A stretch of DNA of 64,000 nucleotides from the IMG/VR virus record IMGVR_UViG_3300045988_092366, one strand, 5' to 3'. The DNA comes from a virus. The notes under the pieces are model-generated. The model was not told the origin of the DNA. It worked only from the letters and a program-made list of their open reading frames with translations, and did not search any database. Numbering within the stretch: position 1 is the stretch's first letter; every line of letters begins with the position of its first letter. Below, piece after piece: positions 3,501 to 64,000 of this stretch. The translations under genes and the position numbers were made by a program.

Positions 3501-4214
3501 TGTATTATATAAAATTTTAGATATTTTTCTATGTATATTATATTTAAGTATGCAGCAAATGTGATTACCGTTTTTTGCCCATAAAACCATTACACCTATA
3601 AATTTTGGCCGCAAATGATTACATGTATCATGGTGCTGCTTTGGATTGCCGCGCCGTTGCTTAGAGCAACGGGCGTCAATATACTAACATTTTTGTATGT
3701 CTATTGGCGTAATGCGTATCGCTATAGTAAAATCTGTATAGTTATACCTATGAAAGTATATGGAAAATTATGCACTATTACCCATGCTCACTCTCCCCTT
3801 GCATGGAACCTATTGGATGTGCTACTTTTTCCAAGAGTATCCTATCCCCCTCTGTATGCGGTACGGTAGAGATACCGTTCGTCTCTTGTAAACTAATAAA
3901 CCAACGCAAGACCGCTTGGCTACAGAAATATTCTACTGCAAGTGAGAGTACATCCATACTTCTCACGGCAGAATAAATCTGCAACGTTTAAGACCCAGCT
4001 ATTCACCTCATTGGGGATTTTTGATTTAGGATAGTTCCTAAGCCGACTGGGAACGGCGCTATGGTTAGTTTTGTATATATTATAGCAAAAGGTTCAGCGC
4101 TTTTCAATAGCTTCGTGAAAATTTTTTAATGCCGTAATCGGAAAGTTTAAAAAGCCAATAGAAGGAATAAAGAAGAAAAGCGTTGCGTTTTATGGAATTT
4201 GAAAAATCCTCTTA

Positions 4215-4259
4215 GGTCGGTAATTTGGTATTTCAAAAAATAACTGAGGTCGGTAATTT
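4215..4259. repeat. Direct repeat aggtcggtaatttg x2
   Basis: gaggtcggtaatttggtatttc and gaggtcggtaatttgtgcagg, 31 nt apart, in the divergent non-coding region. Confidence 0.6.
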
Positions 4260-4308
4260 GTGCAGGGCGGGGCGTGCCTGGGAAAAAACAGGACGCGAAC
4301 CCGGAACG

Positions 4309-4346
4309 CCCCCCCCCATAGGGGGGGGGGCTAGCGCGCTAGCGCG
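4309..4346. repeat. Homopolymer palindrome C9-ATA-G10 followed by tandem gctagcgc x2
   Basis: acgcccccccccatagggggggggg ctagcgcgctagcgcg, inside the 1.2-kb non-coding divergent region 3431-4715. Confidence 0.7.
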
Positions 4347-4715
4347 TCAACAGTTTAGCCGCCGCGAGCGATAGCAGACAATGAGCGCGTTACTTGTAAG
4401 GTGATAGACGATAAATGTAACGTTGTATTTGTTGCGTTAGCTCATTGATTCTAAGGCGCTTATAAAGCGCCTTTTTATTTGCCGCTTTTGGTCGTGCCTA
4501 TGCGCGTAGGCATTTTACTAAATGGCACCTTGTAGGCTATTCTGTGGGCTTGCAAGGGTAAAAAATTATGAATTAGTGGTCACAACTTGATAGAGTTGTT
4601 TTTTCTGTGTATTCGCGTATTCACGCTCTCACGGTTTGACTTTTCGCTTGACTTGTATTACACTAAAGGATTAGACCAGAGACTTATGGAGGAATTGTGT
4701 GCGGCAAATTGATAC

Positions 4716-4760
4716 TTGCCAAACTAGGACGCTTACCGCATAATAATAGTTGTCCAAAGG
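4716..4760 (+). promoter_or_regulatory. Promoter TTGCCA-17-CATAAT followed by conserved transcript start AATAGTTGTCCAAAGG
   Basis: The same 17-mer TAATAGTTGTCCAAAGG and the same ggggacRgaWtggRgttagc pre-ATG box recur upstream of the 8257 gene. Confidence 0.5.
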
Positions 4761-4822
4761 CGAGGGTGCAAGGAGCTAACAAAGGGTTAGCCAGCCCGAA
4801 CGGGGACAGAATGGAGTTAGCA

Positions 4823-5293
4823 ATGTCTAACGCTCAGAACTACAACAAGGCTCTCAACCTCGCGGCTCAGTCCCACACCGACAAGTACAACACCACCAAG
4901 ACGCGCGTACTTGCCACGGGCGTTAAGCTTTCGGACGAGGCTTTCGATGCACTTTACCGCGCGGCAGTTGGCACTTCGGGTTTGATTGGTACCGCGCCTA
5001 CCGAGATTAGCGACGCTCAAGCGGATGCTCTGGACCTTCTTGTTGCGTTCCTTAATGCAAACCGTGATGAATGGTTCACGTTCTCCGATTTGTGCGGTCG
5101 TTCGGGCGCTATTAAGACTAGCAAGATTCGCGATTGGAACGGCAACACCTATACCACGCTTGATAATAAGAACACGCGCGACATTCTTAAAGAGTTCTTC
5201 GACCGTCTGATTAAGGCTAAGGTTTTTGAGGTTGATACGATGGTGTTTAAGTCGAACGGTACTAACGTTCTTTACGTTTATAAAGCTCGTTAG
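4823..5293 (+). CDS. Hypothetical protein in GC-rich island, behind a long conserved structured leader
   Basis: ORF 4697..5293. Start chosen at ATG 4823 by analogy with gttagcNcATG of the 8257 gene (ATG 4811 is the alternative). GC-rich codon usage. Confidence 0.55.
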   Translation: MSNAQNYNKALNLAAQSHTDKYNTTKTRVLATGVKLSDEAFDALYRAAVGTSGLIGTAPTEISDAQADALDLLVAFLNANRDEWFTFSDLCGRSGAIKTSKIRDWNGNTYTTLDNKNTRDILKEFFDRLIKAKVFEVDTMVFKSNGTNVLYVYKAR

Positions 5294-5301
5294 TTTTTGA
5301 T

Positions 5302-5325
5302 AGCTAGGGCGGGGAACGTCCCCGC
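5302..5325 (+). terminator. GC hairpin terminator gggcggggaacgtccccgccc
   Basis: Perfect 8-bp GC stem directly after the stop codon. Confidence 0.6.
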
Positions 5326-5354
5326 CCATTACCTTTAGAATTGGAGATATTATA

Positions 5355-5591
5355 ATGTTGTATCTGGTTTCTGTTAGCGGCATTAGCGCGGGCGAACAGC
5401 TTGACGATTACGAGGATTTTATCGTTGAAGCGGAGAACGAGGAGAATCTCGCCGCCGCTATCGTTGCCGACCGTTTGGATGGTATGGAGTCTGGCGAGCT
5501 TGACGGTTCCGTTTGGCGTGTGCGTGAGTTAGGCGATGAATTCGAGCTAGGCATTAAGCTCGATTTTATTTGCAAGGGTGAACGTCTTTAG
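5355..5591 (+). CDS. Small acidic protein (78 aa)
   Basis: ORF with GGAGA RBS, followed by hairpin gggtagggcttgcgccctaccc. Confidence 0.55.
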   Translation: MLYLVSVSGISAGEQLDDYEDFIVEAENEENLAAAIVADRLDGMESGELDGSVWRVRELGDEFELGIKLDFICKGERL

Positions 5592-5600
5592 TTAGTCAAA

Positions 5601-5622
5601 GGGTAGGGCTTGCGCCCTACCC
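5601..5622 (+). terminator. GC hairpin gggtagggcttgcgccctaccc
   Basis: Inverted repeat after the stop. Confidence 0.55.
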
Positions 5623-5641
5623 ACTCTTTGAAAGTGGAATA

Positions 5642-6124
5642 ATGAAAGCAATTGTATTAGACCTTGACGGCGTGCTTGTTGATTTTTACAACGTCAACGG
5701 TTGGTTGCCTATGTTGCAAGCGGAAAACGCCGCGCCTTACCTAATCGCTAAACCGTTAGGCGACTACAAGAAACTAAACAGTTTGCTTGCCGCTTTGCAG
5801 GGCTACGGTTATGCGGTTGAAGTTATTAGTTGGTTGGCAAAGGGCAAGACTACTAAGCAATTTGATAGCGCGGTACGCAAGAATAAACGCGCATGGTTGC
5901 GCAAGTATTACCCTGCTATTGATTTGCGAAACGTTCACGTGGTCAAGCATGGCACTAACAAGTGGCGCGTATCAAACTACAAAGGCGGCATTTTGTTTGA
6001 CGATGAAAGCGGTAACGTCCACGCGTGGCAACGTGATACGTCAAGCGGCAAAGCGGTACGTATTAAAGATGAAACTACTTTGCTAGACGCGCTAGAATCT
6101 CTTATTATCCAAGAGCTAGAATAG
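5642..6124 (+). CDS. HAD-superfamily phosphatase, 5'(3')-deoxyribonucleotidase-like
   Basis: N-terminal MKAIVLDLDGVLVDF is the DxDGV HAD motif I; 160 aa. Confidence 0.7.
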   Translation: MKAIVLDLDGVLVDFYNVNGWLPMLQAENAAPYLIAKPLGDYKKLNSLLAALQGYGYAVEVISWLAKGKTTKQFDSAVRKNKRAWLRKYYPAIDLRNVHVVKHGTNKWRVSNYKGGILFDDESGNVHAWQRDTSSGKAVRIKDETTLLDALESLIIQELE

Positions 6125-20672: not shown

Positions 20673-21065
20673 TTAATGCGGCATTAGGAGATTTATAAAG
20701 GCACCATAAGGCGAGATAATCCAAGGGATAATGGTGGCAAATTCTATAACCGCAATACCCGCGAAAGCTGCACTTAGGCCATAGCAGACGTAACTTGTAG
20801 CTTCGAGAGCTTCATATTTATTCCTTACACAGCTTTTTTGATACTTTGTTAACGGTAATTTCTCCCAGTCAGAATATTCCTTACTTTTAGCCATACAAAA
20901 CCGAGCTACAACCAAAAGAACAATAGCGAGAATGGCAAGGATGATAACCCTACTAGCGTATGCCGCAATCACATATGAAGCATATGCTGGAATTACGTCT
21001 TTTGTAACAGCGCTTACAGCGATTCCAAGCTGATTTGCGATTTCTTTAATAACTTCTGTATTCAT
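20673..21065 (-). CDS. Membrane protein, paralog of 21084..21449 (holin-like or exclusion-like candidate)
   Basis: Shared N-terminus M(D/N)xExIxEIANQLGIxVxAVTKxVIPAxA followed by 2-3 TM segments. Confidence 0.5.
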   Translation of the reverse strand: MNTEVIKEIANQLGIAVSAVTKDVIPAYASYVIAAYASRVIILAILAIVLLVVARFCMAKSKEYSDWEKLPLTKYQKSCVRNKYEALEATSYVCYGLSAAFAGIAVIEFATIIPWIISPYGAFINLLMPH

Positions 21066-21083
21066 TGTTCACATTCTTTCCGA

Positions 21084-21449
21084 CTAATTAAGAATATAAT
21101 TAATAAAAGAACCATAAGGATAATATACCCAAAGAGCAATGGATGAAATTGAACAAAACAAAAGAACGAAAAATACTGTTGCACAAAACCCAGCGATAGC
21201 ACCAATTATAAAATAAAGACTTGAATCGTAGTCTTGATTTAAATCACCATTTCTTTTTTCAATTATGCCCTTTTTAATAAAAAATATCGTTAAAGTTAAA
21301 GTCAAAGCGAATAAACACCCAAATAGAATAGCCCCAAAGATATAATTTGCTGTTTCAAACTGTGCAAAGGCTGGAATCACTTCTTTGGTAACTGCATCAA
21401 CCGTAATACCAAGTTGGTTCGCAATCTCTTGAATAGCTTCTGCGTCCAT
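21084..21449 (-). CDS. Membrane protein, paralog of 20673..21065
   Basis: ATGA overlap with the RuvB-like stop; two TM segments. Confidence 0.5.
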   Translation of the reverse strand: MDAEAIQEIANQLGITVDAVTKEVIPAFAQFETANYIFGAILFGCLFALTLTLTIFFIKKGIIEKRNGDLNQDYDSSLYFIIGAIAGFCATVFFVLLFCSISSIALWVYYPYGSFINYILN

Positions 21450-23482
21450 TATTCACACTCTCCCATCATTGAACGGCCTAAATCGGTGATAACACGACCA
21501 CGCGGCTGCTTTTGAATATAACACTTAGATAACAGATAAGGCTCAATCTTCGTCTGTACAGTATCTTTATCCATACCAAGAGTAAGACAGATTGTATCTA
21601 CACCTACAGCACGAGTATTGCTGTTAAGGAAATTCATATAATCCATATCGTCTTGATTAAGACCAAACTTATTGATTCCCATCACATATAGAGCTTCATC
21701 AACGATTTCAGGATTGATTATACCATCATTCATAACCAAGGCAAAATCATATACACGGGCTACATAAGAATTGGCATTGCGCGGAATGCCGCGAGTAGTT
21801 GCCGCAATCTTATAGATACTCTTTTCATCAATCTTGATTTTCTTCTCTTGGCAAATCTTCTCTACAATAGATGCCATATCAGTTTTAGAATATGCGGCCA
21901 ATTTAATTTGAATAGGAAAACGATTCAAGAGTGCATCATTAAGACCGCCATAAAGATTAGTCGCGGCAATAAGAGTGAAATGCGGCAAACTCACCCTTGT
22001 CGCTACACCGTCTACTACCACGTCTGCTTCAAACTGTTCCATTGCGAAATAAAGAGACTCTTGCAGTCTTTGCGAAATGCGGTGTATCTCGTCGATGAAG
22101 AGAACGTCATTCTCTTTAAGATTAAGAAGAATCTCGTCAATTACTTTCTTGTCGTTAATCGCAGGACCAGAGAAAGCCTTGAACCCGTAGCCAAGCTCAT
22201 GTGCAATCACATTGGAAACTGTTGTATTGTGCGTTACAATAAAATCGTTAGTCAAATATAGGTGTTCATCATTATCAACATAGATACAAACCATTTCTTC
22301 TTTTTCTGGCATCTTTTCAATGTCTATAATAGAAATGTGATTATGACTAAAATTGTGTTTCTTAATGCCAATTGCTGATGCCATTAACATCTTTTTCCTA
22401 TTAAGTTTAAAAAGTTTTGGCTTTTCTTCATCGGAACAGCTAATTGTAATACTATAACAGATGCCAGTTTTGTATTTTTTTCTAGTATCGCTATAAATAC
22501 GCGGGCAATAAAAACCCAAAGAATTAGCTAAACGAATAACATCGTGGATAAGGTTAATATTAACAGAAGTAAAAGATACACTAGTTCTGTTATCTTTGGA
22601 TACCCTAGCATATCCGTCTGTGTCTAATAAACCCTGTAACAGATTAAGCCTTTGTTCAATGTCTCCATAAAAATATTCCTCTGGAATTCGTTTACTATGT
22701 GAATCGCAACATACTTGTTCTTCGCAAGTTGAAAATAGCTGCTTAGTCTGGACCGTTGTTACCATACAACCACTTGTAGCATTAACGCAAGGAGACTTTA
22801 GTTTAAAACACCAATTATAATTATTTTGAGTATACTTAAAAGGAACTGCTTTAAACTTTTCAGGAAGTAAACTTGCTACAATTTTTGGAATTTCATCATT
22901 TTCCGATGAAAGAGTGAGTTGGCTCTGCAAACAACATCCATCACCAAGAAAAGCTCCTACAATATACGGATGTACATTAAAGTTTTTATGAGTATATTCA
23001 ACGGCTTTTGATATAGGAACTTTGTACTTGTAGTCACGGCGACCGTTGCCTGTAATTCTATATATTCCATTGTCAATGATTTCTCGTAGCGTCATTGTCT
23101 TTAAATTATCTTTGGATGTACAATAACTCCAAAGATGTTCATCATTGCAATAAGTAGAACGTCCATCTTTAAAAGTAACCTTATAATTATCGAGTTTTCC
23201 TTGCGGGAAAACGCCCAAAACTTTCGTAGGCTTACCAAGCCTATCAAAAACATAATCTCCGACAGCAATATCGCCAAGACGCTTATCACCATCAGGCGTA
23301 GGAATAATTGTATCAACAGGTTGGGCTTTTCCGCATCCAGACTGGCCTGTGATAATCGTGTGCGGGAAAGACTCCTTCTTAATCTGCGCTGCCTTAATAT
23401 AGATTTGCAACATCTTTTGGACTTTGGGCTGTCCTTTCAAGTCTTCAATCTTACAAGGACGGAAACCGAACTCAGAAGCCAT
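21449..23482 (-). CDS. RuvB-like AAA+ ATPase interrupted by an intein in the Walker A loop
   Basis: N-extein FRPCKIEDLKGQPKV...IITGQSGCGK and C-extein TTVSNVIAHELGYGFKAFSGPAI...DVLFIDEIHRISQRLQESLYFAMEQFEADVVVDG correspond to RuvB GPPGLGKTTLA...DVLFIDEIHRL. Start trimmed to MASEFGF (RBS AAAGGA). Confidence 0.8.
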   Translation of the reverse strand: MASEFGFRPCKIEDLKGQPKVQKMLQIYIKAAQIKKESFPHTIITGQSGCGKAQPVDTIIPTPDGDKRLGDIAVGDYVFDRLGKPTKVLGVFPQGKLDNYKVTFKDGRSTYCNDEHLWSYCTSKDNLKTMTLREIIDNGIYRITGNGRRDYKYKVPISKAVEYTHKNFNVHPYIVGAFLGDGCCLQSQLTLSSENDEIPKIVASLLPEKFKAVPFKYTQNNYNWCFKLKSPCVNATSGCMVTTVQTKQLFSTCEEQVCCDSHSKRIPEEYFYGDIEQRLNLLQGLLDTDGYARVSKDNRTSVSFTSVNINLIHDVIRLANSLGFYCPRIYSDTRKKYKTGICYSITISCSDEEKPKLFKLNRKKMLMASAIGIKKHNFSHNHISIIDIEKMPEKEEMVCIYVDNDEHLYLTNDFIVTHNTTVSNVIAHELGYGFKAFSGPAINDKKVIDEILLNLKENDVLFIDEIHRISQRLQESLYFAMEQFEADVVVDGVATRVSLPHFTLIAATNLYGGLNDALLNRFPIQIKLAAYSKTDMASIVEKICQEKKIKIDEKSIYKIAATTRGIPRNANSYVARVYDFALVMNDGIINPEIVDEALYVMGINKFGLNQDDMDYMNFLNSNTRAVGVDTICLTLGMDKDTVQTKIEPYLLSKCYIQKQPRGRVITDLGRSMMGECE
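22226..23326 (-). mobile_element. Intein (367 aa) with LAGLIDADG homing-endonuclease domain, inserted between GK and TT of the P-loop
   Basis: Begins AQPVDTIIPTPDGD (Ala1, Hint block A-like) and ends FIVTHN immediately before Thr+1. Two LAGLIDADG-type motifs: IVGAFLGDGCC and LLQGLLDTDGY. Confidence 0.75.
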
Positions 23483-23547
23483 ATAAAATCCTTTCTGCTT
23501 CATTTCTTAAATATATTATATCATTTTATATGGCTTACTACAAGAAA

Positions 23548-31578: not shown

Positions 31579-31647
31579 TTGGAGCGGCAAGACTCGAACT
31601 TGCGACACGTTGAGTTAACAACATTCTACCAACTGAATTACACTCCA
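31579..31647 (-). tRNA. tRNA-like gene (69 nt) with canonical acceptor, D and T arms but a truncated anticodon arm and a 12-13-bp extended acceptor helix
   Basis: TGGAGTG-TA-ATTC AGTTGGTA GAAT-[GTTGTTAACTCAACGTGTC]-GCAAG TTCGAGT CTTGC-CGCTCCA-A. Flanked by ttctattgga/tccaatagaa. Confidence 0.45.
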
Positions 31648-32857: not shown

Positions 32858-32975
32858 AAAATGGACAAATTTATATAGCGACTGCCCAAACCGCTAAATT
32901 AACTTGGGATAAGCACAGACGAATTCAAAGTTCGCTCTACTTATCACTTGGAGAGTGTCTAAGATTAGCACTCTG

Positions 32976-33059
32976 AGCAGGAAGTCAGATTTGAACTGAC
33001 GTGTTCGTAAAGAAGCGGGCTTACAAGACCCGTGCCATCGACCGCTAGGCGATTCCTGC
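32976..33059 (-). tRNA. Class II-type tRNA (84 nt), anticodon ambiguous (UGU or GUA)
   Basis: Acceptor GCAGGAA/TTCCTGC perfect; 3-bp D-stem GCC...GGC with GG in the loop; anticodon arm CGGGT-CTTGTAA-GCCCG; 14-nt variable arm; T-arm GTCAG-TTCAAAT-CTGAC. Confidence 0.6.
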
Positions 33060-57807: not shown

Positions 57808-58692
57808 ATGGTTCTCGAATTTATTATAGCTGTTGTCTGTGCTATTACATTTATCGTATGCGGCTATAGTGTAGGCGTTATAGCTGGCAGAAAAGAAACA
57901 TGTGATATAGTCGAAGAGAACAACAAAGAAGTTCTTATTGCGCGAGAGCATATTGAATATCAAATTCAAAATGAAAAGGCACATTTAAAATCTCTCCAAG
58001 AGAATGTGGAACAGCAGAAGCAGAGTTTTGAAGACTTTAAAAAAGTTGAAAAAGAGAATATCATGAATAACCTTCGTGATTTTCAAGCTCAAGTTGACGA
58101 AGACAAAGCTGAATATATTGAGCAGATTCAAATTCTTCAAAGCTCACTTGACAAGCTACAGCGCCAAAAGGCTGCGACAATTGAAGCGTTTCAACGTGAA
58201 CAGGCGGTTCAAGATTCTAAAGATGATTATCGTATCATTATCGAAGATAGTGACAAAGCAGATATTGATATTCTAAATTCGTTTAAGAACCGCCTTTCTA
58301 ATCCAGAAATTCTTTCAAAGCTAATATGGTCAACGTACTTCCAGAAGAAAGCAAAGGCTTTATTCGTTAATATTGTTGGTACTGAAAAGACTTGCGGTAT
58401 TTATAAGATTACAGATATAAATGATACAAAGTGCTATATAGGTCAATCTGTAGATATTGCAAATCGTTTTACGCAGCATTGCCGTTGCGGATGCGGTATA
58501 AAAACTCCTAAAGATAATAAACTATATGCAGCGATGCTTAAAGAAGGTTTAGACCAATTCACATTTGAAATTGTAGAACTTTGTCCGCAAGAAGAATTAA
58601 ATGAAAAAGAAAAATATTATATTGATGTATATAATTCAGTTAATTATGGTTTTAATTCACAGGATGGTGTAAATGGGAAAAGTAACGATTAA
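57808..58692 (+). CDS. Membrane-anchored coiled-coil protein with C-terminal GIY-YIG nuclease domain
   Basis: N-terminal TM segment FIIAVVCAITFIVCGYSVGVIAG; about 160 aa of coiled-coil; then CGIYKITDINDTKCYIGQSVDIANRFTQH (GIY...YIG...R...H). Confidence 0.55.
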   Translation: MVLEFIIAVVCAITFIVCGYSVGVIAGRKETCDIVEENNKEVLIAREHIEYQIQNEKAHLKSLQENVEQQKQSFEDFKKVEKENIMNNLRDFQAQVDEDKAEYIEQIQILQSSLDKLQRQKAATIEAFQREQAVQDSKDDYRIIIEDSDKADIDILNSFKNRLSNPEILSKLIWSTYFQKKAKALFVNIVGTEKTCGIYKITDINDTKCYIGQSVDIANRFTQHCRCGCGIKTPKDNKLYAAMLKEGLDQFTFEIVELCPQEELNEKEKYYIDVYNSVNYGFNSQDGVNGKSND

Positions 58693-59353
58693 CAGTAATA
58701 CTGTTAAGAATCCTATTACGTTAATTGGCGAAATGGCTGGCCCTTGCTATGGCACAGATACCAGTAACGTAGAGAAGAATTATAAGCGCGGTCTTTCTTG
58801 TATTAAAGACGGGCATTTCCGCACACTTGAGTTTGGAGAAGTGTGGTTTGTTCTAGAGGGGTATTCAGCGAAGGTAATTCGAGAATTCTATACTCATAAT
58901 GGTGGAGCGCCTACACGTCTACAGGCAAGTACGCGTTATATTAAGTATCAAGATTTTGATTATGTAGTTCCTCCAAAAATCGCGGCAAATGAAGATGCGA
59001 AGCAAATGTACGATTCTTGTATGAAAGCTATTGCTGAAGCTACTACTTATATGCAAAAGGAATGTGGAATTCCGCAGGAAGATGCAAATATGGTTCTTCC
59101 TCTTGGAATGGCAACTACTGTCAGTTGTCGCTTCAATAGCCGCACACTTATGACTATGGCTGAACAACGTCTATGTACTCGTGCCTATTGGGAATTTAGG
59201 CAGCTAATGAAAGATATAATTGAAGCATTATCTAAGTATTCTGATGAATGGAAAACTATTTGTGATTTATTCTTTAAGTGTAAATGTGATAAAGCTGGTT
59301 ATTGTCTAGAGCATAAGTCATGTGGAAAATACCCCAAAAAAGTTATTGACTAA
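58673..59353 (+). CDS. ThyX-like protein with non-canonical RHR motif (THN)
   Basis: ThyX family blocks GEMAGPCYG, GHFRTLEF...FVLEGYSAKV...EFYTHNGGAPTRLQASTRY, versus canonical RHR...SQRY. Confidence 0.5.
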   Translation: MGKVTINSNTVKNPITLIGEMAGPCYGTDTSNVEKNYKRGLSCIKDGHFRTLEFGEVWFVLEGYSAKVIREFYTHNGGAPTRLQASTRYIKYQDFDYVVPPKIAANEDAKQMYDSCMKAIAEATTYMQKECGIPQEDANMVLPLGMATTVSCRFNSRTLMTMAEQRLCTRAYWEFRQLMKDIIEALSKYSDEWKTICDLFFKCKCDKAGYCLEHKSCGKYPKKVID

Positions 59354-62834: not shown

Positions 62835-63542
62835 TTGATTAGTAAATACTATGATTCTGTCGCGGCATTACAGGTAATTGGATGTTGTATGCGGAAACCC
62901 GAATACTTAGCAGCAGATGGACAATACTTCTTTTCAGAACACGACTTTTGCAATGATTTACATAAGGTAGTATTTGGTGCGTTATATAGTCTATATAACG
63001 CAGGTGTAACCGACCATCTTGCGCGAGAAATTGAAAATTATCTTAAAGATAAGCCAAAAGCATATGCAGTTTATAAAGCCAATAAAGGTCGAGAGTGGAT
63101 GTTTGAAACTCATGCAAATGCCCACTTAGATGCTTTTGAGTATTATTATAATCGTCTAAAGAAAATGTCTCTACTTCGCGCATATGATGGTGTTGGCGTA
63201 GATGTATCTGATATTTATGACCCTGATAATATCTTAGATTCTGCAAAGAAGCAAGCGCAAGACGAGTACCTTGACGGCACGACATTGGAGCAATTAGCAG
63301 ATGATGTAGAAGGTAAATTTTATTTTATCAGGGATTTATATGTAGACAATAACGATAATGACTCTGTTGCTATTGGTGATAATGTCCAAAAGATTGTAGA
63401 TGAATTAGCACAGCATCCTGCTCGTGGTTGGGCAATGTATGATTTATATGAAGATGCAATCGCTATGGGCGCACGACCTGGCCGCTTTTATCTAAGAAGT
63501 GCAGCAACAGGTGTCGGTAGAATGATTTGCCGACAATAAACT
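62835..63542 (+). CDS. DnaB-like replicative helicase, N-terminal part, ending in a stop inside the Walker A region (TTG start)
   Basis: DnaB N-domain-like ALQVIGCCMRKPEYL...DFCNDLHKVVFGAL, then ...AIAMGARPG RFYLRSAATGVG RMICRQ*. RBS AAGGGAGGA. Confidence 0.55.
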
Positions 63543-63758
63543 GGGGAGAAAATCTGGAACCCTAAACCAAAAGGCAAGGGAATCAGAGGTGAAGGTTAAT
63601 TTTAAATTAATCAGCCGCAACGCATAGCAGGTGAAAAGATATAATCCTGCCACGAGGCCCCAGCTTTCTTTACAAGAAAGAAAAGATATGCTGAACTTGC
63701 GGGAAACTGTAAGAGCTGTAGGATAAAAAGCCTACAGGGTAACAAATTGAAATCAAGA
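63543..63758 (+). other. ORF-less, hairpin-rich intervening sequence splitting the helicase P-loop; candidate small self-splicing intron (boundaries approximate)
   Basis: Hairpins GCAGG-tgaaaagatataat-CCTGC, CTTTCTTT-acaag-AAAGAAAG and CTGTAGG-ataaaaagc-CCTACAG. The stretch aaaagatataatcc resembles the group I S element AAGATATAGTCC. No start codon in the downstream frame. Confidence 0.4.
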
Positions 63759-64000
63759 ACTGGTGTTGCCGATGCTTGCTTCTTTTCATGTTCTGAATAT
63801 TATTCAGATGAAGGTAAATGGGAGCGTTTATATAATCGAGTACCTACTTTATATATTTCGGTAGAATTAGACATTGAAGAGCTTACAACTATGGCGCTGG
63901 CTTTTATTGGTAATATTCCAGAAGACCATATCGTTGAAATGGATTTACTTACTTTTGACGAGGAAGAGAGATTAAAGAAAGCAGTACAGATTCTAGAAGA
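63759..64000 (+). CDS. DnaB-like helicase continuation (partial, runs off the right edge), in frame with no start codon
   Basis: KSRTGVADACFFSCSEYYSDEGKWERLYNRVPTLYISVELDIEELTTMALAFIGNIPEDHIVEM is comparable to DnaB KTAFALNIAENAA...LIFSLEMPSEQIMMRSLASLSRV. Confidence 0.5.

Follow-up and report, generated by a model that had tools for sequence, protein, structure and literature searches.

Class 3 inteins are defined by the absence of Cys, Ser or Thr at position 1, a co-varying triplet of Trp at B12, Cys at F4 and Thr at G5, and a Ser or Thr at position +1, and class 2 (KlbA) inteins are without this triplet and use Cys+1 (PMC2807308, PMC5050341). In DnaBi1 of Mycobacterium smegmatis (Msm), Cys118 is the proven initiating nucleophile and its replacement (C118A) abolishes splicing; Ala1, named for this intein (PMC6195587), follows the Gly-Lys of the P-loop, the P-loop Ser is the +1 residue, and the junction, taken from a primer sequence, reads GK/ALALDTPLPTP (PMC7664689; a slash marks the junction throughout). 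Earlier papers (PMC2807308, PMC5050341) described the 'classic' Lys/Thr site in P-loops and proposed that class 3 inteins originated in phages, and a table in a review counts RuvB among the bacterial intein hosts (PMC5874633). Here we analyzed an interrupted ruvB gene in 64,000 nucleotides (nt) of viral DNA (IMG/VR record IMGVR_UViG_3300045988_092366; this whole stretch is called the window). The best explanation for the locus, to which we assign a probability of about 0.9, is a class 3 intein with a LAGLIDADG homing endonuclease at the classic P-loop Lys/Thr site of a phage-encoded RuvB. Its boundaries, catalytic signature, fold and family membership are observed, as is its presence or absence among closely related alleles.

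The insert starts with AQPVDTIIPTP, finishes with FIVTHN, and is flanked by ...GQSGCGK on the N-terminal side and TTVSNVIA... on the C-terminal side; joined, the exteins read GQSGCGKTT, a Walker A motif. A search with the in-silico spliced product, covering 5.8 billion proteins, recovered three intein-free RuvB alleles of 310-313 aa; across the whole spliced product, P0121 shows 98%, P0122 96% and P0123 95% identity. In alignment, these alleles read GQSGCGK/TATAN and are without exactly A60-N426, in the numbering of the 684-aa open reading frame (ORF). Because precisely these 367 residues are missing from the intein-free alleles, the boundaries are fixed and Cys57, the upstream Cys that had been raised as a possible true first residue, is excluded. 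P0121 sits on a syntenic, intein-free contig (L001) whose DNA high-scoring segment pairs with the window break at 23328 and resume at 22215. Across the junction, the L001 site is GGTTGCGGCAAG/ACCGCAACTGCC, and the joined extein sequence of the window is GGATGCGGAAAA/ACAACAGTTTCC. Matches reached E=3e-199 for intein-free RuvB alleles and E=3e-128 for intein relatives, which excludes chance for either assignment. The intein is therefore polymorphic in its presence among RuvB alleles 95-98% identical; in protein-database clusters, the intein-free ones comprise 87 and 470 members and the intein-containing fragment one. The first-pass annotation had described a 367-aa insert with Ala first and a terminal His-Asn before Thr+1, placed between Gly-Lys and Thr of the RuvB Walker A motif, and all of its counts and boundary residues are correct. 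Its coordinates (21449-23482) hold for the precursor gene and not for the intein itself (22226..23326).

The 684-aa ORF (21449..23503, minus strand) has an in-frame ATG at 23503 that adds 7 aa relative to the start at 23482. The latter start (Met8, MASEF...) has a Shine-Dalgarno-like AAAGGA 7 nt upstream, and gene callers chose the MASEF... start in two of the three closest homologues. From this start, the 2,034-nt precursor ORF is unbroken and in frame across both junctions. In the unspliced protein, Pfam RuvB_N was matched in two pieces, together with AAA_lid_4 and RuvB_C, and in the 310-aa in-silico spliced product RuvB_N was matched end to end (E=1.6e-43). With the NCBIfam RuvB equivalog NF000868 (cutoff 282 bits), the spliced product reached 303.2 bits, and the unspliced protein, matched in two pieces, reached 279.8 bits; with TIGR00635, the spliced product fell below the cutoff (271.9 vs 299). 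After in-silico splicing, the RuvB architecture is complete, with the AAA+ N domain, the lid and the C-terminal winged helix. A full-length phage RuvB here reaches the score of a cellular equivalog. Computed masses are 76.7 kDa for the precursor, 42.0 kDa for the intein and 34.7 kDa for spliced RuvB, close to the roughly 35 kDa anticipated in the first-pass annotation.

The catalytic signature aligns residue by residue with a characterized class 3 intein. In a phmmer comparison with PDB sequences, the alignment to Msm DnaBi1 (6bs8) pairs C347 with Cys118, W66 with Trp67, H64 with H65, A1 with Ala1 and T365 with T137, and the equivalent of Cys347 in MP-Be DnaB is Cys320 (PMC2807308). All sequence and fold features of class 3 are present: Ala1, the W66/C347/T365 triplet, Thr+1, a THN end and the HINT fold. 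Class 1, for which we used Cys or Ser at position 1 and, as a rule, a B7 Thr and an F4 Asp, does not describe this intein, in which the three positions hold Ala, Asn and Cys, respectively. Nor does class 2, since the triplet is present and the +1 residue is Thr. An earlier assignment as 'class 2 or 3-like' therefore stands in its class 3 half (W66, C347, T365, Thr+1) and falls in the other (triplet present, no Cys+1). Judged from its residues, the RuvB intein is an ordinary member of class 3, in which Ala1 is the expected hallmark and points to no new splicing chemistry.

Sequence and structure prediction agree that the insert is a HINT splicing domain joined to a double-motif LAGLIDADG endonuclease in which both acidic residues are kept. 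The double-motif criterion comprised two helices, each with a C-terminal acidic residue, and paired alpha-beta-beta-alpha-beta-beta-alpha domains. Pfam LAGLIDADG_3 covered residues 224-293 with 38.7 bits (cutoff 22.5), Hom_end scored 29.6 bits (cutoff 21.1) and Hom_end_hint was sub-threshold; the two motifs expected from the first reading are both there, as IVGAFLGDG and LQGLLDTDG (Table 1). In motif 1, G124, G128 and G130 are invariant or nearly so in family sequences, and in motif 2, D235 (114/114), D237 (109/114) and G238 (114/114) are kept among the close relatives defined below. All catalytic residues of the splicing and endonuclease domains are intact in the window intein. An AlphaFold2 model of the intein, built on 54 family sequences, was of high confidence over its whole length, with a mean predicted local distance difference test (pLDDT) of 95.9 and a predicted template modelling score of 0.93. 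Its top Foldseek matches in the PDB were full-length intein endonucleases (PI-SceI, E=1.5e-18, then TliVMA and PI-PfuI), followed by mini-inteins, among them the class 3 DnaB inteins 6bs8, 6rix and 6riy (root-mean-square deviation 2.0-2.4 A over 80 columns). The endonuclease fold also matched I-DmoI and I-SceI.

With the intein alone as query, 340 proteins matched at E<=1e-5, of which the 114 with full-length matches are treated as close relatives. Among these, Lys at -1 (junction GK/A...THN/T), H64, Cys at position 347 (F4), Thr at position 365 (G5), H366 and N367 are each found in 114/114; position 1 is Ala in 110, position 66 (B12) is Trp in 109 and the +1 residue is Thr in 113. A HMMER search of 1.84 billion cluster representatives gave 17,547 matches at E<=1e-3 and 2,170 at E<=1e-30. 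In the 130 top representatives with full-length matches (clustered at 50% identity), F4 is Cys throughout (130/130), with Thr at G5 in 127, Trp at B12 in 126, Lys at -1 in 115, Ala at position 1 in 96, and either Thr (118) or Ser (9) at +1. Ala1 is the norm of a very large, already described family, and the less common part is the RuvB host. Hosts of the close relatives are varied P-loop nucleoside triphosphatases (NTPases): AAA_33 kinases (closest, 58% identity), PhoH, AAA_30, AAA_24, DnaB, UvrD, deoxynucleoside kinase, guanylate kinase and one other RuvB (P0017). In deposited phage genomes, the intein matched 832 records, 300 of them from Mycobacterium phages, at 30-37% identity, in terminases, helicases and PhoH. 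A locus covering >=80% of the precursor, that is, the intein-in-RuvB combination, was not found in 50,697 deposited phage genomes. When the 4-kb region was compared by Megablast with the deposited phage genomes, there was no match, so the phage is without a close cultured relative, and a literature search for the phrase 'RuvB intein' returned no paper.

As the alignments have it, one class 3 lineage occupies the identical Gly-Lys/Thr position in at least 10 unrelated P-loop NTPase families (RuvB, PhoH, AAA_33 kinase, AAA_24, AAA_30, DnaB, UvrD, deoxynucleoside kinase, guanylate kinase and terminase). A tentative and rather unlikely extension is that the element is a generalist 'P-loop hopper', with an endonuclease or splicing constraint suited to P-loop-coding DNA as such; if so, it could move between paralogous and non-homologous ATPase genes inside one phage genome. 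Contig L003 (ENA ERZ1764574, 101.8 kb; loci 714-2357 and 3645-5623), from a distantly related phage whose RuvB is 51% identical, is an example with family members in both RuvB and AAA_33. Its second family intein, in the P-loop of the AAA_33 kinase, is intact, and the two L003 inteins are 47% identical to each other. No donor of the window intein stands out: the RuvB and AAA_33 inteins of L003 and the AAA_33 intein of P0002 are all about equally distant from it (56-60%).

By homology to MP-Be DnaB and Msm DnaBi1, we infer a maturation route in five steps. Because its Walker A motif is split, the 76.7-kDa precursor would be unable to bind ATP. Cys347 (F4), placed by His64, Trp66 and Thr365, would attack the Lys-1/Ala1 bond to give a thioester block-F branched intermediate, from which the N-extein would be transferred to the Thr+1 hydroxyl, yielding a block-G branched intermediate. 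Cyclisation of Asn367 would then free the 42-kDa intein, and an O-to-N acyl shift would leave a 34.7-kDa RuvB with GQSGCGKTT restored. In class 3 inteins, splicing depends strictly on the block F Cys and proceeds through a thiol-labile branched intermediate at block F, and mutants of the +1 residue still undergo N-terminal cleavage. For homing, the prediction is that, during co-infection, the endonuclease of the freed intein cuts ruvB alleles that are intein-free, at their P-loop codons, whereupon the element would be copied in. Directly before block B7 lies a further cysteine, Cys60, which is kept in 108/114 family members and also occurs in gp41-1. Its position suggests a residue near the active site and a possible disulfide partner of Cys347; by analogy with Msm DnaBi1, it might make RuvB maturation redox-conditional.

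The comparison with L001 bears on mobility. The joined exteins differ from the intein-free L001 gene at 25/933 nt, and 10 of these 25 differences lie <=32 nt from the junction, where the C-extein start changes from TATAN (L001) to TTVSN (window). Beyond its first 10 nt, the C-extein has four mismatches to L001 in the remaining 767 nt. Such clustering of mismatches next to the junction is compatible with co-conversion or with immunity of the target site and, together with the presence or absence of the intein among 95-98% identical alleles, gives indirect support for site-specific cleavage of the intein-free allele. The intein has a guanine-cytosine (GC) content of 34.2% and a third-codon-position value (GC3) of 24.8%, compared with 40-45% and 37-54%, respectively, in the exteins.

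Several points weigh against the reading of an active, mobile class 3 intein. Its splicing chemistry and competence, and likewise its endonuclease activity, are predictions from catalytic-residue conservation and homology. The class 1 intein gp41-1 did not splice once Trp, Cys and Thr had been engineered into it (PMC7664689), so the triplet alone is no guarantee of activity. The 2.5 kb upstream are also only 94% identical to L001, which makes the junction cluster only partly diagnostic of co-conversion; N-extein divergence, which matches this upstream identity, was dropped as a sign of co-conversion, and the junction-proximal part alone is claimed. Finally, two related contigs hold broken intein copies, so the element can decay, or these assemblies are wrong. 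On L002, from a second sample (Logan ERR14022386 contig, 56.9 kb; 3715-5769), the same intein-containing ruvB allele (99.5% identity) has two 1-nt indels, an extra C within CCC (gene nt 137) and a missing T within TTTTT (gene nt 990), and the gene caller split it into three ORFs, one of which is P0001. The RuvB intein of L003 is inserted at the same GK/A site and has lost ~17 codons over block B, including the essential His, with a shift of frame.

These copies would suit a decayed, non-splicing fossil, whose precursor never matures and which leaves the phage ruvB effectively a pseudogene, as would the larger size of the intein-free clusters and the precedent of Arsp-FB24, reported as a phage-origin intein pseudogene with a WDT triplet (PMC3196547). 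We nevertheless consider a fossil improbable: the window ORF runs uninterrupted through both junctions, every splicing and endonuclease catalytic residue is intact, and the exteins, 98% identical to intein-free alleles, give no sign of relaxed constraint. The L002 frameshifts are probably sequencing or assembly errors rather than decay, because the indels fall in C3 and T5 homopolymer runs, typical of sequencing error. Less probable still is a class 2 (KlbA-like) route, left open in the first-pass annotation, in which the +1 residue would attack the N-terminal junction amide directly and the block F Cys would be uninvolved. Although Ala1 is common to archaeal KlbA class 2 inteins (PMC2807308), that class is defined by a missing Trp-Cys-Thr and its known members have Cys+1 (PMC2807308), whereas the RuvB intein combines W66, C347 and T365 with Thr+1; C347 is invariant in 244 relatives, and, among solved structures, its nearest relatives are not KlbA but gp41-1 and the DnaB inteins of class 3. 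We give almost no credence to a boundary shifted to Cys57 (CGKAQPV...), three residues upstream of Ala1, which would make this a standard class 1 intein. Its product would read GQSG/TTVS and lose the Walker A Gly-Lys, the gap in the intein-free alleles falls elsewhere, and Lys at -1 and Ala at the first position prevail among the close relatives while position -3 varies (Cys, Ser, Thr, Ala, Val and others). A class 3 intein with its endonuclease thus remains our preferred reading.

The main value of this reading lies in annotation: the gene is to be named intein-containing ruvB, and gene callers fragment its related copies (L002, L003, P0001). Phage RuvB joins the list of P-loop hosts of the class 3 intein family. 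The window and L001 form a natural intein-plus/intein-minus pair with a defined target site, usable for homing and co-conversion tests. Because structurally characterised class 3 inteins are mini-inteins, a full-length, apparently intact member with an endonuclease could have minor protein-engineering value.

Table 1. Positions of the parts of the intein-containing ruvB gene and of other features in the window (intein residues are numbered from Ala1)
Feature	Position	Strand	Details
RuvB precursor gene	21449..23482	-	677 aa, 76.7 kDa from Met at 23482
N-extein	23327..23482	-	52 aa, ends GQSGCGK (Lys-1), first part of Walker A
Intein with class 3 signature	22226..23326	-	367 aa, Ala1...Thr-His-Asn367; aa 60-426 of the 684-aa ORF
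Ala1 (block A position 1)	23324..23326	-	non-nucleophilic first residue
Cys60	23147-23149	-	directly before block B7
Block B core N61-D-E-H64-L-W66	23129..23146	-	His at B10, triplet Trp at B12
LAGLIDADG motif 1, IVGAFLGDG	22937..22963	-	intein residues 122-130, acidic Asp129
LAGLIDADG motif 2, LQGLLDTDG	22613..22639	-	intein residues 230-238, acidic Asp237
Cys347 (block F4), within M-V-C347-I-Y-V	22286..22288	-	predicted initiating nucleophile
Block G Thr365-His366-Asn367 and C-extein Thr+1 (Walker A Thr)	22223..22234	-	
C-extein	21449..22225	-	258 aa + stop; rest of RuvB AAA+ domain, lid, winged helix; Pfam RuvB_N 426-535, AAA_lid_4 538-610, RuvB_C 612-680
Two tandem paralogous small hydrophobic proteins	20673-21449	-	121 and 130 aa, directly downstream of ruvB
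Extra tRNA	31579-31647	-	called by Rfam, missed by ARAGORN
tRNA-Thr(UGU)	32975-33059	-	85 nt
ORF with GIY-YIG domain	57808-58692	+	domain at residues 196-278
Thymidylate-synthase-like ORF	58673-59353	+	start overlapped by the GIY-YIG ORF
DnaB-like helicase ORF (PHROG 19), region	62835-64000	+	stops at 63539
Helicase P-loop insert	63519-63749	+	231 nt, ORF-less

The window is a segment of a large phage genome with 7-8 transfer RNAs (tRNAs), gyrase B and A, PhoH, two RNA ligases and a DNA ligase, and it also encodes a TROVE/Ro-like protein, a radical SAM protein, a sigma-factor-like protein and a GIY-YIG endonuclease. Neither the PhoH gene nor the AAA_24 gene of the window contains an intein; in other phages, both host the RuvB-intein family. 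A tblastn search of the window with the intein as query gave no second copy, which places the other insertions in the window outside this family. Among them, the helicase insertion reported in the first-pass annotation is present at the window edge, where the helicase P-loop (SAATGVG/KS) is split and the frame then resumes (KSRTGVADA...). The last base of exon 1 is T and that of the insert is G, and the RNA fold of the insert is far more stable than shuffles (minimum free energy -61.7 kcal/mol, z=-4.1). Rfam matched only tRNAs across the whole window at the gathering threshold, and a permissive search of 63300-64000 gave no match. The helicase insertion is a candidate for a compact group I-like intron and lies at P-loop codons, the site type used by the intein family. 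The GIY-YIG homing-endonuclease ORF could be a further invasive element, here in a gene of nucleotide metabolism. Downstream of ruvB, the two tandem hydrophobic paralogues both begin M-x-x-E-x-I-x-EIANQLGI, and L001 has a single 128-aa copy. Among the tRNAs, tRNA-Thr(UGU) exceeds the standard length of class I tRNAs by ~12 nt, and tRNA-Leu and tRNA-Cys were called by ARAGORN and missed by Rfam at the gathering threshold.

Among the nearest known counterparts of the RuvB intein are class 3 inteins of DnaB. In Msm DnaBi1 and M. chimaera DnaB1 (6bs8, 6rix; PMC6195587, PMC7664689), insertion is likewise after the P-loop Gly-Lys, with the P-loop Ser or Thr as +1 nucleophile, and both share with it Ala1, an xxxH-x-W block B, a catalytic block F Cys and a THN C-terminus; the N-terminal register of Msm DnaBi1 is identical (A1, D5, T6, P9, T10, P11). 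In contrast, these are mini-inteins of ~140 aa that have lost the endonuclease and reside in a cellular DnaB, whereas the RuvB intein keeps an intact two-motif LAGLIDADG domain in a phage host protein. Block B7 has Asn in the RuvB intein and Asp in both DnaB inteins, and the redox partner of DnaBi1, Cys48, is without an aligned counterpart; a different conserved Cys (C60) adjoins block B7 instead. Among PDB sequences, the splicing domain is matched best by the class 1 split intein gp41-1, with E=2.8e-12 for the natural form (6qaz) and E=3.1e-15 for the engineered Trp-Cys-Thr version (6riz). This intein shares the ...C-x-E-E-H-L... block B and the THN end, but it is naturally split, with Cys1, Phe at B12, Asp at F4 and the class 1 route. 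The 'TerL1-a' phage terminase inteins and other K/T P-loop inteins (PMC5050341) belong to the same family, with 33-37% identity over the full length and the same Lys/Thr point, and occur in Lactococcus phage 949, Lactobacillus phage LfeInf and Staphylococcus, Vibrio and Klebsiella phages; their hosts, unlike here, are terminase, helicase, PhoH and RNA-ligase-adjacent genes. By its published features, MP-Be DnaB of Mycobacteriophage Bethlehem, the class 3 prototype (PMC2807308), is also a full-length phage intein: it has 341 aa and a LAGLIDADG endonuclease, is without a nucleophile at its N-terminus, and combines Trp-Cys-Thr and Thr+1 with a DNA-metabolism ATPase as host. It differs in residing in DnaB rather than RuvB, and mycobacteriophage relatives match the RuvB intein at <60% identity.

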